A stretch of 64,000 nucleotides of DNA from Candidatus Omnitrophota bacterium (GCA_029571225.1 JAKPTF010000035.1:12575-76574), one strand, 5' to 3'. Shown: positions 7,180 to 62,000, counted from the stretch's first letter. The notes: generated from the sequence alone by a model not told the origin. Made by a program: numbers and translations.

Positions 7180-7217
7180 TGTACTCCTCCCATGTTAGGA
7201 CGATTTTAAAATATCGG

Positions 7218-10073: not shown

Positions 10074-10120
10074 TATCTCCCCCTTTTTATCGGCTTAGAT
10101 GGCATTACGATATATGCATG

Positions 10121-10153
10121 CCTGCGCGGCAGGCATCATGCCTGCCGCGCAGG
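10121..10153. repeat. GC-rich perfect inverted repeat (16+1+16 nt) in the intergenic gap between the FBA-PFK-GAPDH and PGI-like genes
   Basis: CCTGCGCGGCAGGCAT-C-ATGCCTGCCGCGCAGG. It lies 10 nt downstream of the TAA (10163-10165) on the transcribed strand. No U-tract follows it. Confidence 0.6.
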
Positions 10154-10162
10154 TAATTGATA

Positions 10163-15313: not shown

Positions 15314-15329
15314 CGTTTCTTCTCCTTTT

Positions 15330-38000: not shown

Positions 38001-41000
38001 TGATCGCCATGGCCTTGATAGCATCCAGATTTCGCTTGAATTCGGCAAGGTCAACTGCCAGACAGGCGGCGGGGATACCGTCATTAAATAATGGTTTGAT
38101 ATCGACTTTACCGTTCAGATACACATAAAACCCCTTGATATGTTTCAGTGCCTGTTCGAAATCCCGTGCAGGAATAGTTTTCAACAGGCGCAGGAAGTCC
38201 GTGTTTGAGAACAAATCCCTGAAGAGCCGGTCAGCATCTGCGTTTCTTTCATTCTCCAGCAATCTGAAAACGGAACGCTGATCTAACGGATACGCCTTGA
38301 TCTGGTTCAGCATATCGTAAATCAACTTCGCCTTTTCCCTGCCGTCCGGCTCCGATGCCGCAGCCGTGACGATCTTATAGTAAAATTCGGTTTCTTTCTT
38401 TGCCCGCGGCAATAATATCCAATCGCGCCTTTCTTTCAATTCACGCGTCATTTTCCACCACGGATGGTCGACGATTTTGATTGTTTTCATTTCCTGGCCA
38501 TTGATAAGCCACTGGGTCAATACGCGCATCAATACATCATTATCCAGCCGCCCGTACAACGCTACTGCCCGGGCATACTCCTTATCTGCAATAGACGCGG
38601 GATCCTGTTCATCGAAATCCCTCATTTCCTTCAGGTCATTCCCGAATGAGCTCACTCTCTGTATAAACAATTGGACCCGCTGCGCCCGTGCAATAAGCAG
38701 GCACAATCCGGTGGTGAGACCCAGAACGATTAATAGTGCCGTTTGATTATCTACTAAAATAAAACAGGCAACGATGGTGACAACCAGGAAAACGCCGAAA
38801 GCGAGTATATTAAAGAATTCCTCTTTCATGAGAGAAAGATCGCCTTCTTTTACCTGTGCCATCTGCAGGCGGATACCCGGCTCTAACAGAATCTCGCTGA
38901 TTCCGGTGCCGGATCCCTGCTGCCTGCCGCCGTCTTTTAAAGGCGGGAGCGCATCTTCGGAAATGCCAGGATCCAGGGATTTATTCAGATGGTACCATTC
39001 CTTAAGAGAAGATAACTGATTGTCCTGAAACAGGGTTCTCATGAATCCGGCTTTCTGCTCGGGCGTATACGCCTTCCACTCAGGTTTTGATTGCTCGTTG
39101 AAGATCCTGAATACTGCTCTTTTGAGATTATCCGGGCCATGTGCCAGGATAGTTTTCAGGTATACGTGCGTCCAGGAACCAGTCTGGCATCTCGTCCAGA
39201 GTTCCAGATCATCGGCGAGTTCCTTCAAATACGCGACCTGCGCGAGCGTATCATTGGCGCGGTATTGTGCCTGCTGCCATTTGATAAACCTGGCAACGAT
39301 GCCTTCGATGATCACCATGCTCTCGACGCCCTTAAGGTTCTCCCTGAAAGACTCGATGCTTGCCACACCACGGCATGCGGCCAGCAACCCTTCATTGACC
39401 AGCTCACCTGTGCCGAGGCCTGAACGCGCCAGGAATGCATACAGGCCGCTAATCAGTTTCAGGCATTCCCGGAAATCCTCGACAGACAGGTTACGCACCA
39501 GATCCTTGAATTCCTCGCGCGTGCGCATTTCGACAAAATCCTTTTCGATTTGCTGCGCGCGAACATCCCCCAGGGATGCGCTGTTCATATCCCTCAGCAT
39601 ACTGCATAATGACTTAACTTTTGCCTTGGCGTCACCGAAAGACGGCACCGCATCCTGCATTGCGTCAAGGAGAAGTGCCTCATTCTGTATCAGAGATTCA
39701 TATACCTTGCGTCCTCTGCTCATCGGCCGATGCGCCATAATAAGCGCTATCTTGTCGGACTCTCCCCTGAACAGCAGGTCCTTTAAAAGCAGAACGGTCA
39801 TGTAATGCGTGGTCCAATAGATGGCCCTGCTGGCGTTTTTGATCTGCCGTTCTGAAAGGGCCTTTGTTTGAACTGCATAAAATGTATTCAGGGCTTCAAA
39901 TGTCCAGGAAATACGCCACATTTTCCCGAAAAGACCGTACATATAACGGGTAAATTTAAATATACAGGCAAAGAACATCCAGATAAACGGCCAGATTGCT
40001 GCTAAAACTACCGCCGCAAAAATGCCCGTGTTCTGCGATATGATTACGCCGCCTACGAGATGCGGGCCGAAGATACCAAAGGCCACAAGCCCAGAAATCA
40101 AAAGAATACCACTGATAGAGTGCCATGGCAAGAAGCCTTTCGTAATGATCTCAAGAGCACGTTTAGCCTCCTGCCAGAAAATGTTGGTCAAGTACTCTAT
40201 CAGCCGCTGCCTGGCAAGTTCCAACGACAGCCTTCGATATTCCTCGTACGTATAGGGGAATCCTTCTGCCTTATGCCGCGTGCTTCTGCCGCCGTCCTTC
40301 TGGCCATTGCCGTTGACGTCACGGCGGCCTGCGGCGTAGAACCCGCGCTCCTGCAGGATCTCGTCGCGGATGATCGAAGCAATGGCAAGCGGCACGTTCT
40401 CGATGTCGCCCTCAACAACCCAGTGCGAATACACCTGCTGGACATAGGTAATACCTTCACCGATGCCTAAACCGATGACCTTGATGCCTTCAGCTTCGGC
40501 TTTCTCAATTTCCTCCTGCATGACCGCGGTATTATTGAAGTGGCCGTTGCCCTCTCCGTCTGTGATGATGATAATAACACGGCTATCTACTGTTTCTTCG
40601 CGCATCTTTTCTACTGCCAGCCGCAGCGCATCGACGTCGCATGTAGCGCCGCCACCCATGAAGTTTATGATCTCGCTGATCAGCTCTTCTTTTTTGGCCA
40701 GGTCAAGCTTCTCGTCAAATTCTTTGTGCACCCATGCCCCTGAATGAAACCCGATGACGTTGAATTCAATGTTCAGGTACTGGAGCGTCTCCATGAGCAG
40801 GACCAAACCATGGATCTCGTCTTCCACGCGGCCCATCGCGGGAATACTGCCGCTTTCGTCCAGCAGCAGCGAGAACCTGTGGCTGCGCGATTCCGGCCGC
40901 GTCTTGCGCAGCCAAACCTTATCGTCGCTAATGCCCTTGACCTCATATGCGATATCCGCCTGCATTAGCCTGCGAAGGTCTATCTTCTTGCCGGTGCGGT

Positions 41001-44000
41001 AGAAACCCTTGAAGCGCGGCTTTGTATCCTTGTGCAGGATGTTGTCGAGATAACCGATGAGCGTATTGATGATGACGCTGACCGGGGCGTAGTATTTGTC
41101 ATAATCAGTAGAGTGCTTTTTGCGCTGGATCTCGAATTTACGCTTGAGGTCGATCAGATCGCCCAACGACCTGCCTTTGAACTGCGCATCGCGGGCCGCT
41201 TTCTTCTGGTCAAGCCGCTTGTCGCTATCCTTATTGCTTTTCCTGTCCGTTTCGTCTTTCTTTGGTTTTTCGCCGGCTTCCTGCGCTGCCTTTGCTTCTT
41301 CTTTTTCGCGCTCTTCCTGCTCCTGGCGCAGGCTTTCCTCCGCCGCTTCGATCTCATTCTCCTTCTGGGCTTTCTCTTCCGCGTTCTTTTCTGCGTGCGT
41401 ATATACCTTTGCGCCGAATTTATCAGCCATTTCCTTCGATTTCTCATCGACGATCTGGCGCGCACGTTGCACGATCTCTTCTTCGCTTAATTCATGGTCC
41501 CAGTCCTCTTCGTCGTTCTGGTCGCTGCTTCCACCTTTCTGATCCTTATTTTGAGGTTCCTGGCCGCCCCCGCCGCCACCCTGCTGGTCTTTTTGATCCT
41601 TATTGTCCTGCTGGCCTTGCTGCCCCTGCTGGTCGCCCGACCCGCTACCGCTCCGGTTGCATTGCTTGCAGCCTTGTTGATTCCGTTTCCTGACCTGGTC
41701 CTTCACGAGATTTTCCGATTCCTGCACTAACGGCTCGTACACAGGCATGATCTTGTCGCGCAAGACACGCATCACGTTCTTGGACGCCTTGAGCTTCTCG
41801 GTCGCGGTCGGGTTGAGGTCCATAAGGACTTTTGTCTTCTCGTTGATATCCGGGGCTGATATCTTGCGTTCATGTCTGCGGTTATCTTTGATAACAAGAT
41901 CTTTTTCCCCGTCCCTGCGCACGGATAATCCCAGGTCTGGAGCATCGACTGCCTCATCGCCTTCAGGATACATGACTGTCTGGCGCCTGCCGTCCGCCGT
42001 TGTAATAGTCAACTTATCTTTGTCCGTGCGTTCAACGTCTATCGTGCCGGCAAGGGTGTTGAAGATGCCGGTATAATCCTTTCTGGTTTTCTCCAGAGCT
42101 TCCAGGACATTCTTGTTTTTGATGCGCGGATGCGGTTTGCCGTACGCCCAATCGTGTATGGCGCCAAAACCGTACTGCAGATGCGGCAGGACCTGCTGGT
42201 CATTGAATGGCTCGTTCGAGTCAGCGCCGAGCAGCTTGGGATCCTCATAAAGCGCGTCAATATACTTATCAGCTCCTTCGAATTTCTTTTTTGTCCAGTT
42301 ATTGACGCGCGGGTCTTCGAGGGCGTTCCAGACGAATTGCCTCGTCGGTTTCTGCTTGACGTACGGATCAGGGAAGGTGATGTCGCGATGGGCGCCTTCA
42401 TGAAGGCACGCGCCAAGCACGAATTCTTCCTTCTTATCAAGCAGGTCCGATTCCGGGCAGTGCATCACCGGCGGCTTGGCTTCAAGGTCAACGCCCCACA
42501 TGGGGCCCGGGCCGGGCTGGATCTTCATGTCATGGCCGAACGACCGGGCCATGGATTCGACGCGGCGCACCTTATCCTGAATCTTGCGTTCCTTTAATTT
42601 CCGGGCGAGCCAGTTCTCCTGGTCCTGCCTGGCATCGTCCGCAGCCGGCTGCTGCTCATTCTCATCCCCCCCGTCTTTCCTGCGCAAGACCGCGTCAGGA
42701 TGAACAAGCTTTGATGCAGCAATCTTCTCGGCAATGGCTTCTTTTGTTACGATGAGGGGTTTTACGACTGCGGGGCCCATTGCAAGCAGTTCTTCCCGGG
42801 TGATTTCGCGTGTCAGATTATCCAGGCTATCGAAACGTTCGATGATCGTCTTAAGCTGCGCATCGCTGATGGCGGCGACTTCTGATGCGCTTGCGATCGC
42901 GACCGGGCTGAATTCTTTCATGACACAAACCGTTTTATCCAGCGCTTTGTCAATCAGAGGCAATAACGCGCAGCACACGACCCGGTGCGCCAGCGGCAGA
43001 GGCGGGCCCGTGGTCAAGACAGGCGATGCCTTTCTCTGCGCGCGAATGATATCTTTTTCATTCGGGTTTATTCCGCTTAATGCCTCGGCAATGCAGCAGC
43101 GCGGCCACTGCGCATACAGAATATCTTCCAGCTCATCACTGAGTCTTTCCATTGCATCCAGGACAGCATCAGTACGCAGAGCCCGAGGTTCCATTGCTGC
43201 AAATTCCGCATAGTGCTGCTGCACATATGCCTCATCCAGGCTTAAGGCTTCAGCGATAAACCGTATATTCGCATCCTCTTTTTCTCCACCGTCCGCTTCC
43301 TGCTCTTTGGAGTACGCCGGGATATCTTTATTCGGGTCAAGCGCTTTGTTCAGCTTATACCATGCATGGCCGTTAAGCCGAAAATCCCTGGCCAATGCCC
43401 GCAGGAATGCATCTTGTGCGGATGGAGAACGGCCTTTCCAATCAGGCATTGCCTGTTCTGCGAACAATTTTTTTACCGCTTCTTTCAACGGTCCCTCATC
43501 TTTCTCAAGGATCGCAGCATAATAGACCTGTGTCCAGGCGCCAGCTGGGCCTCTTGATTCCAGTTCCATCTCCTTGCTCAATCGGAGAAGCTCTTGTTCC
43601 TGCAGGAAAATGTTCTCCTGGCGGTATTGCTTGGTTTTCCACTCGTTGAATTTAACGATAATACCTTTAACTATCTGCTGGCCCTCAATACCTTGTATGC
43701 TGGACCTGAATTCCTCAAGGTTTGAAACTGCGCGCGCCGCAGCGGGAACTCCCTCGGAAAGCGCCTCATTGGGATCAATATCCTTGCTGCTTAGAAACAT
43801 ATACATATCTTTGATGAAATCGAGGCTTTTACGGAAATCATGTGTCGGCAGGCGGCGGATCAGATCAAGGAAATCAGGATTCCTGCGCATTGTCCCGAAT
43901 GCCGCTTCAAAATCGACCGCCTTGCCCCAGACGTTTTCGAGCATTGCGTCTTTAAGGGCGACCAGTGCATTGACATTATCGCGCGCTTCTTCCGGCGACC

Positions 44001-47000
44001 AGGACATGATCCATACCTGGTCAAAGAAAGAAGCTTCCTCGCGGATATCCTCTTCAATCGATTTCTTCTCTTCGTCGGTCCATACGGACTCAAGCTCAAG
44101 GATCCTCTGTATCCTGTCCTCTTTTCCGTTGAGCAGCATCCGGCGGAGCACCATGGCGCGGTATTTTGCAGACATCTGTTTCAGGAATTTTCCCGCGAGT
44201 GCAATATCTTCCTGTGATATGTCTTTCACAGGCCTATCATAAACCTTTGAAAATCCGCGGAACCTCTTGTCAAAACGGACCGACCGCACGGCGAACCGCA
44301 ACGCATTAACCCCTGTGTAGAGCGCCAGCGTAAAAGCAAAAAAGATAAACAACGGCACGAAACATACGGGCTGCAGTAACAGTCCGTACCAGATCCAGTC
44401 AATGATAGTGTAAAGATATAAGTGAACACCCAGGAACACATCAAGCAGATATGCCGCGATGGCCGGCATCCACACAAAACCAGCCATCAAATAAACAAAA
44501 AGATACTTGCAAAATATGTCCTCCAGGACTGCATTCAGTTTCGCGCGCGTACCTAACCGCTCCGATTCTTTGCCCCTGATAAATTCGTGTTTCATATCAT
44601 CAACAGGGAACACAGGCGCATCGCTGCCGCCATCTTTAACCGGATTGGCGCATTCAGGCGCGCTGATACCTTTGGTCAAACAGGAATTAACGATCTGTTC
44701 CATTTCCTCCGGCCTGAACTCGCCGTCGATCCAGAATTCCTGGAACTTATTCCTCATGGCCAGCGAAAGCCGGTTGCGGCCTGCATACCTGCTCGGGTTC
44801 ATGGCGGCGAAGAGGCGGAAATCAGGATGCGGCCGCACCATTTCGCCCTCATGTTCGGTGATGACCAGGTATCCGTCGTCGTCAAGCAGGGAATTGATGC
44901 GCTCGAGTATCTGCGGTTCTGCGAGATTGATCTCATCGAGCAATATCCAGTATCCCTTTTTCATCGCCTCAACAAGCACGCCGTCGCGCCAGCCATATCT
45001 GCGCTTACCCTCTCCTTCCAGAGGCAGATATTCGCCGATAAGTTCCGACGTATCGGTCTGGCCGTCAAGCGACACGCGCACGAAATTGGCATTGGCCAGG
45101 CGCGCCATATAACGGATAAGCGACGTCTTGCTGGATGCGGTCGGCCCGACAAGAAGGACATACTCGCCCATTTTTATGGACGGCGCGATCCTCACCAGGT
45201 ACGACAGCGTTGTCTGGATGTGAACAAGCGCCGCATCAGGTCCTGGTATGTACGGCCCGCCATGCCGGAGCTTTTCAACCCTGACACCGCTGAAATCGAC
45301 CCCGTCAGGATCATCGGTAATGCCGTACGTGCGTGACGCCTGCGCGGGAACATGGCAATGCTTTGCAACAATCCGGTCGAACACCGCCTTGTCCTTTGCG
45401 GTGCGCAAACAGCTGCCGTACACCTCTTTCATCTGGCAGCACAAAAGGTCATGCAAGTCACCCTGGCCGTTGTTGAGCAGGTTTATCCTGTTCGACACGC
45501 GCAGGAGGTTGCGGAGGGTAAAATAATAGAACTCCCCCTCCTCTGAACCGAACAGTCCTTCGACGCCAGCGGTGCGGATTTCGTAGTGAAGGTCGCGGAT
45601 GATCCGGAGGCTGTTGCCGTCCACCTGCGTGAACTTGCGCTCGAGAAGGTCAAGGAGCTCCGATTCCGGCATCTCGTCGATCCATTTGACCCTGAACCGG
45701 TTCATGAAGGCAGGCGATAGCGCCTTGCGGCCCGCATATTCCACCGGGTTCATGGTCGCAAAAAGCCTGAAGTCCGGGTGGGGCACGATCTTTTCGCCTT
45801 CGTGTTCGCGCAGGATTATGTTGCGGTCGTCATCGAGCAGCGAGTTAATGCGCTCGATGATCTGCGGCTCAGCAAGGTTGATCTCATCCAGGAGCAGCCA
45901 TTGGCCTTTTTTCATCGCGTCGATAAGGATGCCGTCGACCCAGGCGAATGAACCGTTGATCTGCGGCCGCGATCCGCCGATGAACTCCAGCTTGTCGGTC
46001 TGGCCGTTCAAGTTGAACCTGCGGAAATCGTTATTTGTCATGGCAGCCAGGTAGCGGATGAGGGATGTCTTTCCGACGCCGGTCTCGCCGACGAGAAGCA
46101 CCTGCTCGTTCATGGCCACCGCATACGCAAGTGACTGGAGGTTATGCACGGTGCTGGGCGTATGGATCAGCTGCGCCGTTGCCTTATTGGGCACGTATGC
46201 CCCGGCTTTTTGGTTGACCGGAAGGACGGTCAGGCCCACGGTCACCTCGTCATCCGTAACCTTTATGGCATCCTGCGGCGTTGGAACAAATACCGCAGTA
46301 TCGGCGCCGCTCGCCGCTGCTCCGAGGTCCTGCAGAAGAACCGCAAACTGCCGCATGTCTTTCTGTGTTTCCATGCGGTCCTGATATACGTACATGGCGC
46401 CTTCCAATACCGCTTTCTCGGTCCCGATGGACTGATACATGTTCACGAAACGAGCCCACGATTTCAAGTCCCTGATGCTGAACACATACCCCTGCAGGCC
46501 GCTGCCGGAGAGCGCGCCGGTATTGACGAGCGAAAGCAGCCTCATATGCAGCCTGACCATTGCCCCGGCAATCGCGTCCTTATCCGGTACCTGCAAATAC
46601 CTGCCCACGATCGTGATCAGCTCATCCTTTTGGAAATTGCCGTCAATCCAGATCTCATGGAACTTGTTGCGCATTGCTGGCGAAAGCTTGTTCCTGCCGG
46701 AGTACCTGCTCGGGTTCATGGCGGCGAACAGCCTGAAGTTCGCATGCGGCCTGACCTGCTCCGCCTCATGCTCGGTAACGATGATTGAGCCATCGTCGTC
46801 AAGGAGCGGATTGATGCGCTCGAGGATCTGCGGCTCGGCGAGATTCACCTCGTCCAACAGCACCCAGTATCCCTTTTTCATCGCATCAATAAGGACACCG
46901 TCGCGCCATACATATTTCCTGCCAAAACCGTTGCCTTCAGGCGCGTATTCGCCGATGATCTCTGCGGTATCGGTCTGGCCGTCAAGGGACACACGGACAA

Positions 47001-50000
47001 AATTATTTCTGGTCAGATATGCCAAATACCGCACGAGGGACGTCTTGCTTGCTGCGGTCGGGCCGACAAGAAGTACGCGCTCGTTCAGCCGGATCGCCGG
47101 AATTATATGGCGAAGGTAGCGCATGGTTGTCGGGATATGCACAAGGCTTGATTCCTTTCCCGGGACATACGGGCCGTCCACGTTGTTTATCTCCGACGTA
47201 TCCAGCGCCATATTGTTCGGATCATGCGCTCCGTTGGGGCTCAGACCGCTGAACGTCGTATCAAGCAGGTCTGCGAATATCTGCTGGTCCGTCTCGGAAC
47301 GGAGTGCGCTCGCATAGACCTCCTTGGCCTCTTCGTTGAACAGCCGCTTCAGCGCGAATTCATTAACCTGTTCGCCGTCCTCCCTCATCCGCTTTTCGCG
47401 CAGTTTAACGCGCTCGCACAGGCGGATCAGGTGCCTGAGGGTAAAACAAAACGGCTCTCTTTCGTCCCTTCCGAGGATCCTTTCCTTACTGTCGCGCACG
47501 AGCGATTGATGCAACTGGTCAATGCGGCCGAGAAGCAGGGTATCGAACCCGAATTTCTCATTCAGCAGGCTGATCCGTTCGCTCGGCAGCATCTCATCGA
47601 TCCATTTGACCCTGAAGCGGTTCATAAGCGCGGGCGAAAGGACGTTCCTTCCTATATAATCGGTCGGGTTCATGGTGGCGAACAGGCGAAAATCCGGATG
47701 CGGCACGATCTTTTCGCCGTCGTGCTCCCGCAGGACGATGTTATGGTCGTCGTCCAAAAGCGAATTGATGCGCTCGATAATCTGCGGTTCTGCAAGGTTG
47801 ATCTCATCCAGAAGGAGCCACTGGCCCTTTTTCATCGCCTCGATAAGGATGCCGTCAACCCAGGCGAATTTCCCGTTTGCCTGGGGCCTGCGGCCTCCGA
47901 TGAATTCCAGCTTATCGGTCTGGCCGTTCAGATTGAACCTGCGGAAATCATTGTTGGTCATGTATGCGAGATAGCGCACGAGCGACGTCTTGCCCACGCC
48001 GGTTTCACCGACCAGAAGCACCGGATCGTTCAATGTCACTGCCTGCGCGACCGCTTCAAGGTTAGAGACCGTGCTTTGCGTATGGACGAGCTGCGAGGAC
48101 TCTTTCTTCGGAACGAATGCGCCTGCCTGTTTCTTCACGGGAAGGATAACCGAATCAACCCGCACCGTATTGTCTTTTATTTCGATAGTGCCTTCCTTAT
48201 ACGGCAATACGACAGGCCCCTCTTCCTCTTTCTTTTGCTGCTGGTCCGCTGCCGGTTTTTCTTTCGGGCCTTCGACGGCCTTGCGGAACCTGATGAATTT
48301 CTCCGCAACGTCTGCGGACAACGGGCCGACCGCGATATGCGCTGCGTCAACGCTGTCGGATTCGTTCTCCAGCTTCTGCAGGGCAACGGTAACAGCCGCG
48401 CTCAATGCAGGGTTCAACCCCATGAGAAGCTCATTGCGCAGCTTTTCCGAAAATGCGCGCAGGCGCAAGTCGCCGATAACCTCGATGGCCGCCTTTTTGA
48501 TCTGGGTGACCTTGCTGGCAAGCGGAACATCGAGCAGCACCGTCGCAATCTCGCGCGGAAGCAGGACGAATATCCGTATGCCTTCCGCGATCTTCGCGTC
48601 CTCGCGGCTTGCAAGCATCTGGGCGATCTGTTTGAGGTACGGCTGCAGGTCCTGCGGAAAGTTCTCCGTTGCCCTGCGGAACTGGTCCGCGAGGCTAAGC
48701 GACGTAAAATCCTCCTCCTGGACGAAGTCAGCCATGGACATGATGTCGTATGTCTCATAGGTCTGCTCTTCCCACACTACGTCGATGTCGAAATCCCTCG
48801 ACTTGCTGCCCGTTGACGCGAATTTAGATTCCTTGACGATCTCCTTGAGCTGCTCCTTATCCTGCGGGGATTCCAGGCGGTCCTTGAACACGTACATGGC
48901 GCCCTTGAGGAACGTAGTGCGCATGTCGGCGTTGAAATTCTCGTTGAACGTCTTGATGAAATACGCCCATTGTTTCACGTCGCGCAGGGAGAAACTGTAT
49001 CCGTCATTGCCCATCTTGCGCCTGCCGATCTGCCCTTCCTGGATGCGCTTCTGGACATGCTTGTAGATCTTGATCATTTCCGCAATGACGTCGTCTGCGG
49101 CAAAACTGCCGAGGTAATGACGGATGATCGAGGTCAGCTCCTCATCGGTAAACTCACCGTCCATCCATATCTCGTGAAACTTGTTGCGCAAAGCCGGGGA
49201 GATCTTGTTGCGGCCCGAATACCGGGTCGGGTTCATGGCGGCGAAGAGCCTGAAGTTCGCATGCGGCCTGACCATCTCGCCTTCATGCTCGGTGACGACG
49301 ATAAAGCCATCGTCGTCTATGAGCGAGTTGATGCGTTCGAGGATCTGCGGTTCGGCAAGGTTCATTTCGTCAAGGAGGATCCAGTAGCCTTTTTTCATCG
49401 CCTCAATAAGGACGCCGTCGCGCCACAGATAGGAACGCTCCGCCGCATTCTCACCCGGGATATATTCCCCGATCAGCTCGCAGGTATCGGTCTGGCCGTC
49501 GAGGGAGACGCGCACGAAATTGTTCCCGGTCAGATGCGCAAGGTAACGGATGACCGATGTCTTGCTCGAGGCAGTCGGCCCGACGAGCAGGATGCGCTCA
49601 TTCTGGCGGACAGCCTTGATGATCTTGCGGGCATAGCACAAGGTGGACTTGACGTGCACGAGCTTTGCTTCTTCCCCGGGCACATACGGCCCCTGCACGT
49701 GTTCGATGCCGGACGTATCCAGCTCCTCGTCGGATACCGGGCAGGAATAGCAGTCGACGCCCGGAAAGACCTGCTGCATCTGTTCTTTGAAGACCTGCTG
49801 GTCTTCTTTTGACCGCAGCATGCTGCCGTAAATATCGCATGCCTCCTGCGCGAACAGCTTCATCACCAGCGGCCCGAACTCGAAATTATTGTTCGTGCGT
49901 GCTTTGACGCGCTTGGCAATGCGCAGAAGATGCCTGACGGTGAAATAATACGGTTCCGGCTCGTTCTTGCCCAGGGTCGGAGCAATGCTGCGCAGGTTCT

Positions 50001-53000
50001 GGTGAAGCATGATAACGCGGGCGATCACGTCCTCATCGAAGCCGAATTTGCGGCGCACAAGATTCAACAACTCGCGCTCGCTCAGTTCCTCGATCCATTT
50101 CACGCGGAAACGGTTCATCAAAGCGGGAGACAAGGCCTGGCGGCCGGCATACTCAACCGGGTTCATGGTAGCGAACAGGCGGAAGTTGGGATGCGGAACG
50201 ATCTTCTCACCGTCATGCTCGCGCAGGATGATATTGCGGTCGTCGTCGAGCAGCGAGTTGATGCGCTCGATGATCTGCGGTTCTGCCAGGTTGATCTCAT
50301 CCAGGAGCAGCCAGTATCCGTTCTTCATGGATTCTATCAGTATGCCGTCAACCCATTTCAACGTGCCGTCGGCCTGCGGCCTGCGGCCGCCGATGAACTC
50401 CAGCTTATCGGTCTGGCCGTTCAAGTTGAACCTGCGGAAGTTATTATTGCTCAAATAGGCCAGATAGCGCACAAGCGACGTCTTGCCAACGCCCGTTTCG
50501 CCGATGAGCAGGATAGGATCGTTAAGCGTCACTGCCTGGCCGATCGCCTCGAGATTGCTCACGGTCGAGGCTGTATGCACGAGATGAGCGACGTCTGCGG
50601 AAGGGACATACGGCCCGCCCTGTTCATTGATCATTACCTTCGCGCAGCCGACCTGCACATAACCTTCCTTGGGCGGCAGGATGCGATTGTTCGCGTCGCG
50701 TTCGTTGAAGTGCTTGCGCGACCGCACGGACTCAAAACATTGCTTCATTTGCGGATGATATTTGGCAAAAACAGCTGCCACTTCATCTGATTTCTTCTGC
50801 AGGTCTTCCGGCAGGACCGGCGCATTGAGATCGACTTCTGCAGCCACATCTTTTAATAATCTGCCGTCCACTTTCTTATAGCCGAGCGTAATGAGCGCCC
50901 GCGCTGCCGATGCTGCCACAAACCTGTCTTTGCGGTCCAGGAGCGTCATCAAGTATGTTGCGTATTTCTTGAACCGGAATTGATTGACCAGGTCGATGAT
51001 CGCCCGTTTGATCGGCCCATCCTCATAGGTAATGGTATGGTCGATCAGCTGTTGCGCTATTTCAGGCGGCAGGCCTTTCCAGGCATAAATTGCGGCAACG
51101 GTCGTCATATCGACTTTATCGCTGAGCATTCCGGAACTTTCCCTGATCGCTCCGGCCAGATCTTCAGTTTGGCCGCGGACAAAATACCTGAACAGGACAT
51201 CCAGGTTGTTTGAGAACAAAATGTCCCGCTCGTCAAATCCTTTGAATTCCACGATCTGGTCAAACTCATCGCTTGCCGCGACATCGATAAAGCTGCCCAG
51301 ATTCAGCTCCGACATAGTTTTCATGAATTCTTTGCGGTCCTCGGGCTTTTCCATGCGGTCGCGGTATACGTACATCGCGCCCTTGACGAATGACCGGGCA
51401 AGGCCCAGTCGAGGGCTGAACTCGCGCACGTAATTCGACCACGCGCGCAGGTCTCTCAGGCTGAACTCATACGGCTCTTTGCGGCCGGCGCCGATCATGT
51501 TCTTTTTAACCTTTTCCCTCAGCTTGGAATGCAGACAGACCATCTCCTTAACCACCTCATCCTTCTGCGTGAGGTTCTCAAGGGGTTTTATCGCGTCTGC
51601 GACCAGGTCTTGTTTACCGCCGTCCTTCATCGGCGCAAGTGTCGCCTCGGTCACCGCAGGATCGAGCGCCTTGTTGAGCTGATACCATTCTTTCTGGTTT
51701 AACCCGTAGTTCGCAGCCAGGGAATGCAGGAAATCCACCTTTTGCTGCTGCGAATACGCTTGCCATTCGGGCTGGGCCTGCTTGTCATAGAGTTTAAGTG
51801 CGGCGTCATGGAAATCCGGCCGGATATCCTTGAGGATAGTCTTGAGGTAAACATGCGTCCATCCGCCCGGAGGACCGCGCGCAGCAAGCTCCATGTGCTC
51901 ATAGAGCCTGATCAACTGTTGTTCCTGTCCGATAACGTCCTTACGCCTGAATTGCCGTCCAAGCCACGATTCGTATTTGGCGACCACGCCCTGGACCAGC
52001 TGGTAACTTTCGATGCCTTTGAGATTGCTGATAAAGTCGTCTGCGCTCCTCGCTCCCCTCGCTGCTGCAGGCACGCCTTCGGAGATAGCCTCATCAGCCG
52101 CGATCTCCTTGGAACGGAGGAACTCGGCCAGCGCCTCGATACTGCGACAGCACTGCCTGAGCTGTTCCGGAGCCAGGCTAAAGACGAGTTTTTTGAAATC
52201 TTCGTGCCTGCTCATGGTCTTGAACGTTTCAAGGCTGACACCGGCCTTTTTGTCAAGCCGCACCTGTGCCGCACTAAGCACCAGTATTTTTAACCTGGCT
52301 TCTTCAAAAGACTGTGAGTGATCCGCAATCTCATCCTGAAATGCACCTTCTTCCTGCAATTCACGGAGCAAAATTTCCGTGTTGCGCTTGTCAGAGAGTG
52401 TATTAATGATCCTGCGGGCAACATCCGAGCGGGAATTAAGCAGGAATAATTTAAGCAGCCCTGCTATGTCCTTATTCGACCACTGGCCGATGATGCTGTT
52501 CATCTTTAAGATCAGCTCATCAGGGCACGGATCACAATCAGGGATCAGCATTTTTTCGATCACCGCTCTCTCTTTGTTACTTATGGAACAAGATACCCGC
52601 AACTGCCTGAATGCGAACACGGCATATATGCCAAGATGAATAAGCGACGCTACCAGCATCACAGGCACGAAAAGGCAGCAAACGCTTCCGAAGAGCCAAT
52701 AATACCAGGGGATTACAAAAGTTATGCCATAAAACCATTCTATTCCGACTAAGGCTATGGCGAATATTATTCCACCGAGGATTTCGCCGACGGGTACTAT
52801 ATGAAGCGCTATAAAGGCCCCGAGAAACTTCGAGTCCCATAAACCTTGGATCCTCTGATCACATTTGGCCGAGAGCTGTTCCAATGCAGCGTCTTTATTC
52901 GCCAGGGGCAGCGCCGCATACTCGGCAAACAGTTCCTCCTCGTCCGGATTGCCGCCGTCCATCAGCGGCGCCAGGGTCGCCTCGGTCACCGCAGGATCGA

Positions 53001-56000
53001 GCGCATAGACAAATTTCTGCTGTAGTGATAACGTCTCCCAATCAGGCCGCAAGCGCCGGTGATACAGCTGGGTAATAGCCTCTTTCAACCGGCCGGGACC
53101 GCATGCTTCCCTGGCGATAACAAGAAATTCCAGATTCTCCTGGCGGCCGCCGTCGAATGCCCCGGACATGCGATAGTGCTGATCTATTGCGGCATACTCT
53201 TCTTTTACCCTGGCCATCCATTGATCATGAGCTTCCCTGCCGTTTTGCCCGGAGAATTCCGGTATTGTTTTCTGCGCTGTCGTTGATATCAGGTCAAACA
53301 GTTCCGTGTCGGATCCGGTCCCGGTGCCGAATGTATGCTGCAGGTCGCGTATAAGACATATCCCCATGCCGATGCGCTCGAGAACCGTCTGATCGTACAG
53401 ATTCTGATATGACAGAGAAGAAATATTCCTGGCCAGATGAGCCGGCGACAGGAAAAGCCATTCTAACATAAGCGATTTGATAATGGTCGCCGGAACGGAT
53501 AATGAGATCCCACCCAGCACCAGAGACACGGCAACGGCGGAGAGCCAGGTAATAGGCGAGACGATCACCACCCATATCAGGATGTAGCCGATGTTAAGGG
53601 ATGCCTTTGCGCACCATGAAAGCACGGTATCAATGGTGTTTATCGTCTTGCGGTGCCTGCCAAGGGCGAGCGGCCATCCTGCCGCATCTTTACTGCGTGT
53701 TTTCCATCCGATCAGATGAGCTGTCATACGGCAGGAATCAGTTTCCAGGGACGGATATAAACCGTTGAACACCGCCGCTGCCAGATTGACATGCGTGAAT
53801 ATTATCAGCGCAAGCCAGGGAGACGCGATGTTCGGGATCAATACCGAAAAGGGCGCGATCCCCAGGGAATACAGGACGATAAGGCCGATCACTGCCAGGA
53901 TGAGGTTGGATAAAGGCCCTGCCGCTGCTACGTAGAAGCCGGACCGGCTGGAGCTAGTGATCGCCGTTGCGGGATCCTCCTCGACATATGATGAGACAGC
54001 GGACAGCCTGATGCGTCTTATGGGCCTCTTGAATCGGATCATGACGAGCGCATGCGCGGCCTCATGGATGGCTGATATGGAATATACTCCGAGAGTCAAG
54101 GCGCCCAGCACCGGGTTCAAGACCCACAGGACGATTATTGCAGGAACAAGAAGAACCAGATTAAAGTGCAGTTCGATCGGGATCGATGTGGGCAGGTGAT
54201 AGACGCTTGAGAACCCTCTTCCGGTCCAGCCGGATTTTCGCCGCTCCGTTTCAGATTCTCCGCCGTCGCGCAGGATGACGTGCGGCAGGGTCTGATAATC
54301 GGGCACGACGGTGCGGATGTTCACCGCGCGCTTGAGCTTCTCCCAATCGACCTTATTGAGCTGATGCTCTGCGGCGATATTCTTCAACCAACCCAGCTTC
54401 TCCTCCAAGGATAAGCCGTTCCATTCAGGCCCGCTTGTCTTCTCAAACACCTTGACCGCCGCTCTGCGCAAAGGCGCATGGGGTCCGTAGTTTTCCTGTA
54501 TCTGTGTCCTGAAATACAAATAGGTCCAATCTGCGGAATCACGAGGTATCGTCAGCCCGATTTCTGATATAAGATCCTTCAGTTTAGTCTCCTGAACGTC
54601 AAGTTCATAATTATGCCCGAGCGGACCGTTAATAAAATAACCCAATTCCCACTGTTTATATGCCCGCACCACAGCTTCTTTCAGGGCCCAGAACTTAATG
54701 GCATGCAGATTCCGAGCAATCTCCTCTTTGGTGGCGGCGCGGGTCGCCGCGGGCACAGAATCGCATAATATCCCGTCGACTGCGATCCCCCGGCTGCGAA
54801 GGCCGCTGCACATCGAGACGATCATATCAAGGCTTTGCTGAAAATCATCCTGCGCGAGATTGCGGATCATTTCCAGAAATTCAGTCTGCGTGGTAAGATG
54901 AAGAAACACCTCGTGGGCATGCCGCATACCTTCCGACCCCTCTCCCAGGTACGGCACAAGCTGACGCTCAAATCCATACAGGGCGCGCAACCTATCCCTG
55001 GCGGTTTCGGCACTATCTGCCAGGCGGAATACTTCGCTCTGGAACTTTAACTCTGCCTGTAGCGATTCCGTAAGCCTTGCTCTTCTTCTATCGTTCCAGA
55101 CAGACAACGCGCAAAACCGCACGGCCTTGTCGCCCTGCAGCCGGGAGAGCCAATCCTGGATCAGAAACGTCAAATACCTGTCCGGAAGCTGGCTGAAGGC
55201 TTTTGCCGATCTCTCCAGACTATTATCAGATACATCGGAGCTGTCAGATACTATGATCTTCTTCATCCGGGGATGATCAACGCAATGGTGCACGGCCAAC
55301 GCAATATCATACACATGACCCGTGAGGAATAAAGCGCCCATAACAGGCATGATATAAAGAATATTCAGGGAAAGCGTGAAACCCACGCCAGCAGCTATAA
55401 AGTTTAAAATTACAGTCATGAAGAAAACTATCCATCCAAGATCAGCTTCTGGTGACGTATGATATGTCCGCGCCTCCAGTGTTTTCCAGAAAGGGACCTG
55501 CGGCAGAGCCTTGCATAAGCGATTAGAGATTTCTTCATCTGCCACAAGCAGCATATTGACTACGAAGTTTAAAATAGATATCATGAATATTGTCGCGCAC
55601 AAAATGAGGCCCAGAGCGGACAACATAAAAATTCCATCGATAGTCACGGCCTGCGTATAGAACTGCCATGCCAGACCTGTATCGCCTCCTGACAACGCAG
55701 CCCAGGCCTGCGCAAAATATGAAAGAGATATCTGATCCTGGGGGGTTAAGAAACCGGCGGCGAAAACGCTGCATGCAGTCCACAGCGACCCGCCATCCGA
55801 ACGCAGGCTCGCCAGTCCGTCCTGGTCTGTTAATTTCTCCCGAATAAGACCGTTGTTGAACTGCGGGTTGACCCAGACGATCCTTCCATCAGGCGTAATG
55901 TCGCAGAGCGCGGGGCACACAATATCGATGCCGAAGGTCCTGTGCCACTCATCCTGTATATCGCGCGGCAATATCAAACGGTATATGTCGGCCACCGCAC

Positions 56001-59000
56001 GACCCTGCTCGACGTGGGTATATGCGGCCCTGTCCGGCCAATTCGCCGGGTCAAGAACCGTTTGCCAATCCGCCTCTGTAATCTCTCCCTTCTGCAGGCC
56101 CAACACCACCCTTAAACTGCTCAAGAGTTTTTGTCTTTCCTTCGAAAGGTCGCCGCCGTCATGCTCTGCCGCTAAACTAGTCTCCTTGGCACTGATTATT
56201 TCAAGCGCATCCCCGGCCATTTGAAGCGTTGCTTTCATACCCCGTATCTGCTCATCGGAAAAATCGCCGCTGGCGCGCACACTTTCAGCGATCTCATCGC
56301 GCATCTCTGCGGCGCGCGCGCGGCGGTCCGCAGGCTTTTCCTCCGCAACCAGATGGTGAATACCCTCGGCGATCATAACCAGGTTCCGGTCGTTCATGAA
56401 GTCTGCCGGGCGCAACTGGCCGGCAATATCCTTGAGCTGCTGTACCGACGTTATGGCATAATCGTGGTTAACCAGGCCAAAGGCTGAAAACATCAAAACG
56501 AATACACCTATAATTCCCAGGCTGAAGGGCACATAAAACGGAAGAATGCCGATTACGGACAATACCGCCAGGGCAATGCAACTGACCGCGACAATCCGGC
56601 TGTAGACTACGGTCACCCTGTTCGCATAAACGACATTTGTTTTCATCGCAAGCAATGACCTGATCACGCGGCCCGAATCAAGCGGGTACATCGGCATGAA
56701 AAGATTGAATATGCCCAGAATCCAATTGATCAGGCCAAGCGACACCAGCCAGGCGAGCGGGCTTGCCATATCTATGACCGGCCAGGCGAACAGGTTGAAC
56801 GAAGCACCCAGGAGCGCTGCGGGAACGAACAGCGACGCTGCTATGCCGAAACTTGCAAGGGGGCCGGCAATGGAAACCAGAAATTCCTGTTTCGGATCCC
56901 TGAACTTCATGTCCCGGATCGCCGTAGTGCCTCCCAGGATATGAAGCGTAATATGATCCGTTTCAAAGCCGTATCGCCGGGCAGCGCGGATATGCGAAAA
57001 TTCATGCGCCAGCACTGACAGAAGAACGGCAATATAGAACAACAGAAGTTCCCATCCGGTTAACGCAAACAGGGCAATCGGAATAACCAGCGTGATGTGC
57101 AGCCGCAGCGGGATCCTGGTCGGTATCTGTAACGATGGAAATATCCCGTCGCCGACCAATTCCCAGGATTTGCTCTGCGCTGCGCCGCCGTCCCGGCTCG
57201 CATCGATCCGTGTCGACGGACAAACCACCCTGGCTCTGAACCATAGAGGAACATGCCGGATCATATCCTGCCTGATCGAAACAGCTTTTATAAAGCTGTC
57301 CTGCGCCATGTCTTCAAAGCCAAGGGCAAGCGACATTGCCCCCAGGTTTACATGTGATATATGGCACGCCGGATTGAGCTCGATTGCCTTCTGCATCTCT
57401 ATAATGGCTTGCTGAAAATAACCCTGCCGGTAATAGAGTAGCATGCTGCGGTTATAGAGAACCGACGCGTAATCGGGATTCTGCTCAAGCGCCTTCCGAT
57501 ATGCCGAAAGTGCGGCGTCATAGTGGCCGAACTCCGCATATACCGCTCCCAGGTTATTATAAATACAACAGCTCACGCCCGGCTTATCCATTATCTGGAA
57601 CCCGAAGTAAAACAGATTCAATAATTCTTTCTTTGTGATGCGGTCGACATCCAGCACGCCTGCCTGATATTGCTGCTCGAGTTCGATAACACGCTCGCCG
57701 GATATTTTATAGTTTGGCTTGAGTACCCAATATACGCCTGCTTTGCGGTAATATTTCCTAACATTGACGACCCGCAACGTGTTTAATATGAAATCGATCA
57801 CCAGCAATCTTTTCTTGTCAAGCATGAGCCCGACAAAACAATGTCCGATACGGCTGCAACCCCGGACGTTGAATCCCAACATTGCCAGGATGATATACGT
57901 CAATTGCGCGGTTACAATACATCGCGCGAGGCATGCTTTCATAGCAGCGCTTTCGCTGCCGGAACGGGAATCGGCATCAATGACATCGAATATATTTTCG
58001 TGGTTCAGGCTGTTGACTAACAGCATGCTTATCTGCGGCGGATCAACCTCTTCAAAAATCCGGTTCCTGTCGAACAGGTCCCACACCACAAGCATTAATT
58101 GGCCGAGATGCTTTCTGCCTTCGGGGGCATTACGCAGGCACTGATGCCATTGCGCTGATTGTTCTGTAAGGGTTTGCCATGTATCTTCAGGAAGGACCTG
58201 TTTGATCTGAGCGTTCAACGCCGGAACGGCATTTTCAGGATACCCGATGCTCACGAGAATACCGGATAATTTTTCATCATACGCTCCGCCGTCCAGGCTG
58301 AGATACAACTCCAGAGCCTTGTTCCTGACCAGCGCAGTCATTTCCGCTTTCATATCGGCATCGTCAGGGTGCGCCATGCAGCGGCGGAAGGCGCTATCAA
58401 AAACCCGGGCCGTGAATTCAAATCCTGCGTTATAGTAAAATTTTATGTAGCCGAACATCCCTGCCGGATCGCGGTCGATCACCGGCGACGGATCATGCGC
58501 AAATCCCCTGACCGCGCCCTCATGAAGGGAATATATTGCACGGAGCCGTTCGATGAATATCTCGCGCGTCCAACCCTGATGCCGGTATTCCGGGAACAGG
58601 AAGAACCCGGTATTAAAGAACCACTTGGAATGCCAGCCAAATCCGACAATCCCATCCCTGTTGGCCAGGATCTCGAGCCTTTCATGGCGGCCGCCGATCG
58701 TGACGTTGAACCCGCGGGGTCTTTCCGAACAGGACCAGTGTATCCCGCGGCCGAGGATCGTCGTGTAGAACGGATCGTTCTCGAACATCATGATACCTTC
58801 TGTCTCAAGACAGAAATACGTCCTGCCGTAACGGGCGCTGTGCTGACTTATTTTTGCATCAAGCATTGCTACCTGGTCAGAGCTATCGGCCCAATCGGAA
58901 TCGAAAAGCTCGATCGGCTCTTTGATCCTGCTGACGATTTCTTCGCGTCCTGTCCCGCCGTCGCGCAGCGCTCTCTCGATCATCTTGATGTCGCTTGAAA

Positions 59001-62000
59001 GCCTGTCCATGGCAAAATCGGTATACCTGCAGGCGATCATGCGTTTATTGACCGGCAGTTCTCCCCGCGCCACGCGCGTCCGGATGCCCTTCATGGTAGA
59101 GGTAAACCCGCTGATGAAGCTATCCCTTGCCGCAGGCCGGATATCCCGGGCCGCGATATTCGACAGGAGGGATTGCAGCATTCCGGCCTGGGTGCTCAGA
59201 TCGTCTTTGTCCAGAGTGAACGCGCTGACAAAATCTATATTGTACATTTCAATAACCGTATCGAGGTCAAGATCAACCCGGATATTGCTCGGGTTCCTGT
59301 CACCGAGGCCGATCAAATAAGCGGCAAATGCGGTCTTGCCCAGCAAATATGCCAGTTGCGGGACAAAACGACGGTTCGCGAGCAACGCGTCATTGAAAAG
59401 GTAGATATCCTCAAGGCTCGAATTGCCCACGTTGGTATAAACATAGTAATGGCTCCGGTAATCGACGAGCATCTGCGTCGGCAGGGTAAACGCCTCCAGG
59501 ACTATCGAGGCATACGGCTCATAGCTGTACGAAAAGGCCTCTTTCAGGATGAGCGTTATATGCTTCGAACCGAACCGGACTTCCGCGCGGTACGTCCGGA
59601 GGTCATCAAACGAGGTCTGGATTACGCCTTTTATTAATTTCACGGATCCGATGCCGTCGCAGCCGAGGCGGCAGAGAAGCTGCCTGATAAACTGTTCTTC
59701 CTGGCCGCCGTCGCACGATTGTTTTGCGGAAGCCGCATCCTCTTTCCCATCGGCAGCAAGATACTTTTCTATGACGTGGCCGGGGATCAGCCTGTTCAAT
59801 CGTTTGACAGCAGATTCCTTTTCGTCAGGGCCAAGCACATTGATCACGTGCAGATTTCCCGGCGACAGGACAATCGCCTTCATGAAATTTTCCATCGCCT
59901 CCTGTTTATTTTCCGAATACAGATTAACGAGCCCTAAGCCAAGATAACTGCTGTAGTCTGCGGGATTGAGTTCCCGGGCAAAAGAAAACTCTTCCTCGGC
60001 ATTCTGGTAATCCCCTCTCTCAAGGTAATTGAATGCGGCGCCGATGTGCGCAACGACATAGTCCGGTTTAAGTTTAAGGGCCTTAAGATAATGCGCCAGC
60101 GCCGCATCCTTATCGTTCAGCCGGTCATACGTCATCGCCGCTTTCTTGTACATGACCGCCATAAGGCCTGATGCGTCGGTAATATATATATTCGAGTAAT
60201 ATAACGGGAACATCTGGGCATCTTTGAGCGTGTACGCAGGCTGATTTTTCCTGTCGGACCTTTCTTTCAGCCGGAGCAATGCCGCAGGCTCAAGCGGCCA
60301 GTTCCATGACAGATATTTTCCCTCGGCGTGGTAGGTATCCTGCAGCGGCACTGCCTTAATAATGCCGGTGAACAGGTCGACAAAAATGTGCTCGCCTGCC
60401 CAGGGGACAACCGCGAACACGGGGCCGGAGCCGACGGCAATCCTTGTCTCATAACCAAGCATCGATAACAGCAGATACATAAAAGCAGTCTTGTTGGCGC
60501 ACGTAAAAAACGAGTCATAGATCCTGTTTTTCTCTTCTTGCGCGAGGGGCGAGGCAAAAAGGGCGTCGAAAATATGCTGTATCGGCAGCGAGTGCACCAG
60601 ATATTCGTGGATTAACCAGACAGACCTGATATAAACCTTGTCATGCGCAAACCCGACTTCAGGGAGTTCGTCGTGCGTTGTTTCAAATACGATCTCTCGC
60701 GTCTTTCCGTCCCGGACGCTCTCGTCAAATATTTCCCTGAAGGTCTTTTCCATGATGAGAAGCGTGTCCCGGCTGAATTGCGCGCGGAGCTCTTCGATGA
60801 AAGCGGGCATGATCTCCTTTTCGCAGGACAACCGGCGCAGGATTTCAATCAGGTCCCCGTCATCGGCTATATGCCCGCGGTTGGGAAGCAGGAGCGCCTG
60901 CTCCGCCTTGAGCATGGCCTCTTTTTCAGCTCGCGATTTCCTTTCTATCTCAAGGTACATGGAAAGATACGGGATATCAAGGAACGTCGGGCAGACCACG
61001 ACATCGACCGCATCCGTATTTGCAAAGCCTTTCTTGAGGCCGCGGTAATAATTCATGATGCAATCGCCTTTTTCGAACATCTTCAGATTAAAGATGACGA
61101 ACGGTTTCTTGGCCTTCTTTTCCGCAAACGCCGCTGCCTGCAAGACAATACCCGCAGCGCTTTCAACCGGCATGGCGAATCGGGCGACAAATACGCCGTC
61201 GATGTCTGGTTGCCCTAAATAATCCGCGGCATTGTCCGCATTGACGTACCTGCCGTACATAAGATAGATCTTTCGCGCAATGCGCGGCCCGTACCGTTTG
61301 TTCCGGGCGAGCCACGTCCGCAGTGTCCGGCAGACCGCCTGGGCCTCGGCAGGATCTATTGCCTTCTGCTGCGACTCCTGCTGCTGCTTTACCCACAGCG
61401 GCAGATAAATGACAATGACCTTCTGGGCCTGTTTCCTGCCGATGCCCTGCAGGGCGGTGCTTAACTGGTTGATCAAAACCTCATTCGTGACCCCGCGTTT
61501 TCGTTCATCGAGCGTATCAGACACGAAAATGGCCGGTATCAGGCCGTGCGCCAGCGCAGCCTTGACCTTCTTATTGACGAGTTCATACGATTCCACGATC
61601 TCGACAACGCCGTGCGTCCGTTCCGGATGCCCGACCATGACAAAGGCGACCTGCTCGCGTAAAAGCATGGAGGGCGAAACCTCTCCCGTATACGGCCCCG
61701 CGTCCTTGTAGAACATGTTCTGGGCGCCCATGAATATACCGCCGTCGCGGTCGGTATCGGGGGCGCATTTTTCACGGTCGGACAGCTCGGTCATATACCC
61801 CTGCGCCGCCAGGAATTCGGCTTCTTCGAACCATGTCAACTTCGCATTGCGCATTTGTTCCATGACAATGCGGCGGTACAGCGATCCGGGATCGAGTACG
61901 ATGGTCACCAGATAACTCCACGGAAGCCGCTCGATGCGCGTTCCGTTCCTGATGGTCCTGCCGGAAAGCGGCACCGGCAGTTCCTTGCACATGATGCCGG

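Follow-up and report, generated by a model that had tools for sequence, protein, structure and literature searches.

The closest described relatives of the domains considered here are the site-2 protease (S2P) MjS2P of Methanocaldococcus jannaschii (MJ0392; PDB 3B4R) and the stand-alone M50-CBS proteases, the products of genes of ~370 amino acids (aa). They are built around a core of six transmembrane (TM) helices, with an N-terminal IPxxLH strand, HExxH in TM2, AGPL in TM3, NxxxPxxxxD in TM4 and a membrane-reentrant beta-hairpin. SpoIVFB of Bacillus subtilis (PDB 8VJL and 8VJM) belongs to the same subgroup and has the same fold; its substrate is paired with the reentrant loop by beta-augmentation, and water enters its active site from the cytoplasm (PMC11486902). 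The M50 family is already known, and so is the giant open reading frame (ORF) class of Omnitrophota, whose 'class 1' members tile ROK, HAD, GNAT, HEAT, TPR and peptidase domains along a chain with dozens of TM helices. Whether these giants act as a single chain or as cut pieces has been left as a question (10.64898/2026.06.07.730766; 10.1101/2023.11.21.568195). Here, we describe a 64,000-nucleotide stretch of a Candidatus Omnitrophota genome (GCA_029571225.1, JAKPTF010000035.1:12575-76574; hereafter the window), in which a giant ORF carries two M50 modules, each delimited by the tripeptide Asp-Gly-Gly (DGG).

The two modules have all of the core elements listed above for MjS2P and the M50-CBS proteases. 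They differ from them in lacking the CBS pair, in being embedded in a chain of >15,600 aa, in having Asp-Ser in place of Asp-Gly and in carrying 8-9 additional residues before IPxxLH. With SpoIVFB they share subgroup and fold, and presumably also a cytoplasm-facing site and substrate capture by beta-augmentation, whereas the interdomain linker and CBS domain that help SpoIVFB to bind Pro-sigmaK have no detectable counterpart. The PDZ group, represented by RseP and SREBP-S2P, has the catalytic motifs in common with the modules and cuts type-II (N-in) helices, which is the orientation of the helices that directly follow DGG here. However, the helix count differs, Pfam finds no PDZ domain in either module, and the resemblance to RseP is marginal (NCBIfam RseP, E=0.05 over 36 residues around HExxH; PDB 7W6X, E=0.74). 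The chain also recalls viral polyproteins in its length, its unrelated modules, its recurring short junction motif and the protease domains within it, but the viral enzymes are soluble serine or cysteine proteases with defined junction specificity, and cleavage in the present chain is unproven. We know of no intramembrane metalloprotease that matures a polyprotein. The two papers on Omnitrophota giants mention neither M50 nor a DGG junction; among peptidases, they deal with C39, S8 and signal peptidase II. What is new at this locus is that duplicated S2P cores without CBS domains occur in such a chain as modules bounded by DGG, together with evidence from alignment that the divergent copy retains the catalytic set.

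Identity and origin of the two M50 modules

The giant ORF comprises ~38 DGG-delimited modules; its frame is still open at base 64000, with the N-terminus outside the window, and the 15,639 aa listed are a lower bound. Residues of the ORF are numbered from zero, and module coordinates are window positions on the minus strand (Table 1). The profile search that the first-pass annotation had named beforehand as decisive for its two M50 modules found the family in both: against the Pfam cut-off of 27.2 bits for Peptidase_M50 (PF02163), module 1 scores 60.0 bits (E=2.7e-16) and module 2 scores 32.1 bits (E=9.5e-8). The active-site motifs reported by that annotation, HEFSH and NLFMPMYPLDSGR in module 1 and HEAAH and NGLYPSLETDSCR in module 2, are all present where it had placed them. 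In the second motif, N-x-x-x-P-x-x-x-x-D, the Asn, Pro, Asp and Arg are in register in both modules, and both possess IPxxLH, a conserved N-terminal element of this S2P subgroup. The segment of module 1 that aligns with the MjS2P stretch LLLPIGGVAMMD is the membrane-reentrant loop ITLHILGGTTAIRD, with its conserved Gly-Gly; the corresponding region of module 2 is IRLSAVSSYVEED.

Comparison with solved structures leads to the same assignment. By sequence, module 1 matches MjS2P over the whole core (3B4R, E=1.4e-14) and SpoIVFB (8VJL, E=2.5e-5), while the match of module 2 to 3B4R is weak (E=0.043). The fold comparison covers module 2, the fold of module 1 being judged by its full-length sequence alignment to 3B4R. 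An AlphaFold2 (AF2) model of module 2, built from a 41-sequence alignment, has a predicted local distance difference test (pLDDT) score of 85-97 at residues 20-190 and low confidence past residue 190. Foldseek matches of this model are confined to 3B4R (E=4.6e-7, TM-score 0.62 on the target) and SpoIVFB 8VJL/8VJM, with E values of 4.6e-7 to 2.9e-4 overall, the next match being at E=0.63. Judged by sequence and model, both modules are genuine S2P (MEROPS M50) domains of the SpoIVFB/MjS2P subgroup. The NCBI pipeline names one Omnitrophota giant-protein fragment 'site-2 protease family protein'.

Most stand-alone homologues carry CBS domains (PF00571). Neither module contains a match to this family, nor do their isolated tails at E up to 10. 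A canonical CBS-less M50, with HEFAH and PLDGG, is found in a fragment of another Omnitrophota giant (P0160/P0114; NCBI MDD3987654.1 and MFA5437889.1), so that CBS is missing from all the embedded M50s seen here, i.e., from the paralogous pair and from the one in the other giant. That fragment also carries PAS, URO-D, Fer2 and RACo domains. It has a recurrent motif of its own, GDGS, with four copies against 0.08 expected, which does not flank its M50; after three of the four copies, 'PL..(L.)EG.N.SG' and a TM helix come in turn; the fourth copy is located where the fragment is truncated.

Modules 1 and 2 align at 28% identity over 187 residues (E=3e-8). Two rare characters link them more specifically. 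An insertion of 8-9 residues directly before IPxxLH (FPSLQIPTR in module 1, SVYHLPTS in module 2) occurs in none of the 39 stand-alone homologues of the 41-sequence alignment, and inspection of the sequence shows that the M50 of the other giant lacks it too. Asp-Ser replaces Asp-Gly in two of 189 sequences, which are modules 1 and 2 themselves, while 99% have Asp-Gly. Because the insertion and the Asp-Ser are common to both, the modules are best read as true paralogues that arose by duplication within this lineage, and the paralogy proposed in the first-pass annotation holds. The similar stretch that it noted ahead of the TM region of each module is in part the IPxxLH element of the subgroup and in part the insertion found in these two alone among the 41 sequences. 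One result speaks against the paralogy: in a ranking of distances, modules 1 and 2 are not nearest neighbours. This is ascribed to saturation by the divergence of module 2, which makes the ranking uninformative as a test, and the rare common characters were used in its place. No similarity or repeat links the two modules at the DNA level.

The closest stand-alone homologues of module 1 are M50-CBS proteins of 360-400 aa (32-47% identity). Ordinary genes make up the whole set of the best 80 metagenomic relatives, whose stop-to-stop frames do not exceed 798 aa (median 385), and only one other giant appears among the 150 top representatives in the homologue search. Each module starts exactly at the residue after a DGG, as the first-pass annotation had it, and this residue falls within a few positions of the start codon of the stand-alone homologues. 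The conserved His of IPxxLH lies 29 and 31 residues after DGG in modules 1 and 2, respectively, against a median of 19 after the initiator Met in the homologues, a difference accounted for by the 8-9-residue insertion. In the proposed history, one stand-alone M50-CBS gene would have been absorbed into the giant ORF, would have lost its CBS domains and would have been duplicated. Copy 1 would have stayed canonical, whereas copy 2 would have evolved fast with its catalytic residues under selection; as with SpoIVFB, the reentrant loop would capture substrates by beta-strand augmentation. Directly after module 2 comes a 65-aa module homologous to the last 65 residues of a repeated module type of this chain, family X (38% identity to the module that follows it). 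Module 2 is positioned between a full family-X module and this orphan C-terminal fragment, possibly a trace of insertion or duplication. The TPR module that directly precedes module 1 (m06) is paralogous to another TPR module of the chain (m03; 26% identity over 251 aa, E=3e-20).

Topology and catalytic residues

Each module has six hydrophobic helices. Lys and Arg residues are concentrated in the N-terminal segment, loop 2 and loop 4 (3/6/4 in module 1, 4/7/7 in module 2), with none in loops 1, 3 and 5 of either module. By the positive-inside rule, both modules are predicted to have their two ends inside (N-in/C-in). The HExxH end of TM2 and the Asp end of TM4 would then lie at the cytoplasmic leaflet, which is the arrangement of solved S2Ps. 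Since the termini of the modules would be cytoplasmic, so would the flanking DGG junctions; the topology check proposed in the first-pass annotation thus puts active site and junctions on the same side. A cytoplasmic location also fits the need of the neighbouring ATP- and CoA-using modules for the cytoplasm. Across the chain, the called hydrophobic segments lie mostly near module starts, downstream of DGG, and none ends within ~20 residues before a DGG.

The first-pass annotation regarded module 1 as intact and module 2 as degenerate. Conservation was assessed on 31 columns kept in at least 80% of 189 homologues, nine of which are fully invariant. Module 1 keeps 27 of the 31 columns, slightly under the homologue median of 30 and equal to the M50 of the other giant. 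Module 2 keeps 15, the lowest value of the whole set, and in this respect the word degenerate is justified. It is not justified for the active site: module 2 retains all nine invariant columns, namely the His, Glu and His of HExxH, the Gly-Pro of TM3, two Asn, the Pro and the Asp ligand, the last being aligned by BLASTP in register and without gaps with the zinc-ligand Asp of module 1. Only six of the other 22 conserved columns are kept (Fisher p=2.5e-4), and retention of the invariant set while the other columns changed suggests selection on the active site. 'Fast-evolving but catalytically equipped' would be a fair description of module 2. By analogy with characterised S2Ps, both modules would be zinc intramembrane endopeptidases whose targets, segments inserted in the membrane, are reached from the cytoplasm.

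It could instead be that module 2, and possibly module 1, is a pseudo-enzyme or a decaying relic kept for its six-helix anchor, or for a partner role in substrate binding or regulation such as iRhoms have among rhomboids. Several observations favour this alternative and weigh against catalytic competence. In addition to the low column count of module 2 and a Pfam score 5 bits over the cut-off, its substrate-binding reentrant loop no longer has the Gly-Gly kept in 98-99% of the 189 M50 homologues, and a near-invariant Pro and two Gly around the Asp ligand are now Glu, Ser and Cys. Loop 4 of the domain is expanded, and confidence in the model drops past residue 190. A triosephosphate isomerase (TIM)-like module that appears catalytically dead is present elsewhere in the same chain, which indicates that decay is tolerated in the giant ORF, and activity of either module is a prediction from sequence and model. 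On the other side stand the full His-Glu-His-Asp set and the other invariants, kept while 16 of 22 further positions changed, and a core confidently modelled as an S2P fold in which the reentrant beta-hairpin is still predicted. For module 1, the near-median conservation argues in the same direction. A relic thus seems unlikely, and we retain the description of module 2 as a divergent copy with a catalytic site under selection.

DGG junctions and the processing of the chain

DGG is the most over-represented tripeptide of the giant ORF (z=16), with 37 occurrences against 4.2 expected and a maximum of 10 in 300 shuffles; Asp precedes 44% of the ORF's Gly-Gly dipeptides. The preceding residue is Lys or Arg at 19 of the 37 sites (4.5 expected) and never Asp or Glu, giving a junction signature [KR]-D-G-G. 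The Asp codon is GAC at 32 of 37 sites, against 47% in the background (p=7e-7), while the Gly codons follow background usage, which indicates protein-level selection on the motif. A role of DGG as a nucleotide signal, i.e., an internal Shine-Dalgarno sequence, was considered and rejected: GGAGG occurs at ~11 of the 37 sites (11 with GGA as the first Gly codon), and the Gly codons are those of the background. The CDF transporter module illustrates how module starts coincide with the motif, as its first residue is DGG+1 and its natural N-terminus, rich in His, leads into TM1. The motif also occurs outside the giant ORF. In four neighbouring separate proteins, a signal-like N-terminal segment is followed by K-DGG at residues 45-73, from which it appears that DGG also closes N-terminal leaders. 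Altogether, DGG seems to be a signal between former genes, marking either a junction or the end of a leader. That the chain might also be cut at DGG is an attractive but hypothetical extension of this view.

The four neighbouring proteins are fused glycolytic enzymes: PFK/GAPDH/aldolase; PGI; PPDK; and TIM/M54/PGK/enolase. In three of the four, the signal-like segment is followed by an 'AG[DN]xNLRP' element, and in two of the four a second DGG precedes, by ~250 aa, a conserved C-terminal domain whose last residues are ...EDTLNKI.

The first-pass annotation had seen in the embedded metalloproteases an alternative or additional processing activity, above all for DGG sites followed directly by a TM helix. 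The sites that it cited do precede a hydrophobic segment, by 0 (34660), 9 (19696) and 12 (24445) residues, yet no positive evidence for a processing role of the M50 modules emerged. Under such a role, the S2Ps would be maturation proteases of the giant chain, cutting in cis or in trans at or near DGG junctions that abut a TM helix, and either upstream cytoplasmic modules would be released or modules would be freed from their anchors. Several features can be cited for it, and some of them count against regarding the proteases as passengers. The two M50 domains are the sole peptidases confidently recognised by Pfam and NCBIfam scans in the visible 15.6 kaa (thousand amino acids), which leaves room for processing, and their predicted active sites share the cytoplasmic side with the junctions. 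At four DGG sites (aa 9776, 13181, 13880 and 14764), a hydrophobic helix that would insert from the cytoplasmic side begins 0-12 residues further on, and 15 of the 37 sites have a hydrophobic segment within 60 residues. RseP-type S2Ps cut type-II helices roughly at such DGG-proximal positions, near the cytoplasmic face, and Gly-Gly would provide the helix-breaking residues often needed in S2P substrates such as SREBP and RseA. The second Omnitrophota giant also has a CBS-less M50.

At most junctions, a number of observations speak against such a role. For 22 of the 37, the distance to the next called hydrophobic segment exceeds 100 residues, and only the four just mentioned have one within ~12. 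The [KR]DGG motif is unlike any known S2P specificity and fits a sequence-specific soluble endopeptidase; to our knowledge, S2Ps such as RseP, SpoIVFB and SREBP-S2P do not read sequence motifs. The segment bound by SpoIVFB is N-out/C-in (PMC11486902), whereas a helix right after a cytoplasmic DGG would run the other way. In the other M50-bearing giant, none of the GDGS copies precedes the M50; the best 80 metagenomic relatives are ordinary short genes; and the same DGG ends the leaders of separate neighbouring proteins. A maturation function of the embedded S2Ps is therefore improbable. Still more doubtful is the fuller version, in which the giant ORF would be a true polyprotein and M50-1, with M50-2 as a specialised paralogue, would set membrane-anchored modules free by cutting DGG-adjacent helices or the hairpin anchors after them; if true, these would be the first site-2 proteases acting as polyprotein maturases.

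If DGG is cut, the enzyme could be another, double-glycine-specific protease, either a C39-type cysteine peptidase or a JAMM/DUB-like enzyme as acts on polyubiquitin-like precursors, encoded in the N-terminal part of the ORF outside the window or elsewhere in the genome, with the M50 modules as bystander cargo. C39 peptidases cleave after Gly-Gly. C39 domains have been reported near the N-termini of full-length Omnitrophota giants and proposed to cleave them (10.1101/2023.11.21.568195), and a 24-protein C39 architecture cluster has been described (10.64898/2026.06.07.730766). The occurrence of DGG at the leader ends of the four neighbouring proteins and its conservation at the protein rather than the nucleotide level fit as well. 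However, neither C39 nor any other cysteine peptidase is detected in the window, where the sole C39-family match covers the TPR part of the model, and the hydrophobic residues found at -4, -7 and -12 of canonical double-glycine leaders are not seen at DGG; cleavage there is itself hypothetical. This alternative is plausible, although we place it somewhat below even chances. The reading that we prefer is that the modules are captured housekeeping-type S2Ps and are probably not the enzyme for any [KR]DGG cleavage. If the junctions are cut, a sequence-specific soluble peptidase would be the more likely agent, for example a double-glycine peptidase of C39 type whose gene lies outside the window.

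The value of the locus lies mainly in offering an experimentally tractable entry to whether giant proteins are polyproteins. It provides three handles on the question of chain versus pieces: the [KR]DGG motif, boundaries that coincide with former gene starts, and two intramembrane proteases that appear catalytically equipped. The modules are small (~345-370 aa) and self-contained, and can be expressed and tested against junction reporters. Even as cargo, they would indicate that a giant chain with many membrane passes can accommodate a spliced-in membrane protease whose in/in topology is fixed.

Other peptidase candidates in the window were considered and set aside. HExxH occurs five times in the giant ORF against 0.42 expected. 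HEGAH (aa 7198) is without support as a peptidase, the DUF2201_N match (E=9) lying elsewhere; HELAH (aa 14205) has a sub-threshold YgjP-like match (PF01863, E=0.052, 14 bits). The latter match is centred on the motif, in a region between the CDF and HAD modules, and this region is possibly a third, soluble metallopeptidase-like element. A protease hidden in family X was likewise rejected: its profile gave nothing meaningful against PDB sequences, its AF2 model is an all-alpha solenoid, and the database search returned nothing but a fragment of the same metagenome-assembled genome (MAG).

Other modules of the giant ORF and its host

Besides M50 x2, Pfam and NCBIfam recognise in the giant ORF DUF1152, the TIM-like domain, TPR, six AAA_5 (midasin-like), VWA, dephospho-CoA kinase (CoaE), HEAT, ROK kinase, a CDF metal transporter, HAD phosphatase and a weak GNAT, i.e., at least 13 distinct families, unrelated to each other. 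At least 52 hydrophobic segments were called by a crude caller that undercounts. With >10 kaa, an Omnitrophota origin, many Pfam families and numerous TM helices, the ORF belongs to the 'multi-enzyme' class of Omnitrophota giant proteins (10.64898/2026.06.07.730766). Identical fragments (P0040, P0044 and P0193) are deposited at NCBI as Candidatus Omnitrophota MAG proteins, and only short ones are found in protein databases. Scans of genome contigs with protein patterns and with an exact 50-mer, and an exact scan of metagenomes, gave no match to the source genome or to orthologues. ENA assembly ERZ773284 and run SRR5007359 both contain an exact copy of a neighbouring gene. Neither Rfam nor a tRNA scan detected an RNA gene in the window, and no opposite-strand ORF of notable size is present.

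Table 1. Window coordinates of the M50 modules, their motifs and junctions, and other features of the locus
Feature	Position	Strand	Description
M50 module 1	56152..57183	-	ORF aa 2271-2614; six-TM S2P core and ~105-aa non-CBS tail
HEFSH, module 1	56992..57006	-	two zinc-ligand His and catalytic Glu, in TM2; invariant columns
NLFMPMYPLDSGR, module 1	56668..56706	-	second S2P motif, in TM4; third zinc ligand Asp at 56677-56679
ITLHILGGTTAIRD, module 1	56911..56952	-	membrane-reentrant beta-loop
FPSLQIPTR, module 1	57115..57141	-	insertion before IPLRLH; otherwise in module 2 alone
M50 module 2	53146..54258	-	ORF aa 3246-3616; divergent six-TM S2P core, enlarged cytoplasmic loop 4, ~110-aa non-CBS tail
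HEAAH, module 2	54052..54066	-	within hydrophobic TM2; invariant columns
NGLYPSLETDSCR, module 2	53728..53766	-	second motif; N, P, D, S, R in register with module 1; Asp ligand at 53737-53739
IRLSAVSSYVEED, module 2	53974..54012	-	reentrant-loop region; conserved GG lost, beta-hairpin still predicted
SVYHLPTS, module 2	54184..54207	-	insertion common to module 1 (alignment)
DGG preceding module 1	57184..57192	-	module starts at next residue
DGG ending module 1	56152..56160	-	last residues of module
DGG preceding module 2	54259..54267	-	module starts at next residue
DGG ending module 2	53146..53154	-	last residues of module
Giant ORF	17077..64000	-	at least 15,639 aa; contains both M50 modules
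Family X, seven paralogous modules	54259-55788, 51616-52950, 43285-44625, 38926-40287, 37564-38925, 34660-35961, 33190-34659	-	
65-aa family-X C-terminal fragment	52951-53145	-	right after module 2
TPR module m03	59704-61737	-	
TPR module m06	57184-58284	-	
TIM-like module	61114-61737	-	
YLPLWV	61390-61407	-	in TIM-like module
Six AAA_5 and midasin-lid module	44626-51615	-	2,330 aa
VWA module	40288-42666	-	two modules after the AAA_5 module
HELAH	21367-21381	-	region 21097-21741
DGG in neighbouring gene	9864-9872	-	in gene at 6852-14573
DGG in neighbouring gene	15128-15136	-	in gene at 14595-16813

In the TIM-like module, strand beta3 comes directly after DGG, beta1-2 being absent, and no NWK, with the catalytic Lys and Asn, is found upstream. 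It has YLPLWV where TIM has YEPVWA, with the consequent loss of the catalytic Glu, and is probably a pseudo-enzyme.

Family X consists of an N-terminal TM hairpin, or hairpins, and an all-alpha domain of ~300 aa with GVPAAxR and GxWTxVY motifs, and ends in W-x-x-LNKAxDP...DGG. It has no match in Pfam, NCBIfam or PDB; its AF2 model (pLDDT 76) resembles generic helical repeats only.

A 2,330-aa module combines six AAA_5 domains with midasin-lid domains (521 bits). Together with the VWA module located two modules later, it constitutes a midasin/MoxR-VWA-like pair within one chain.

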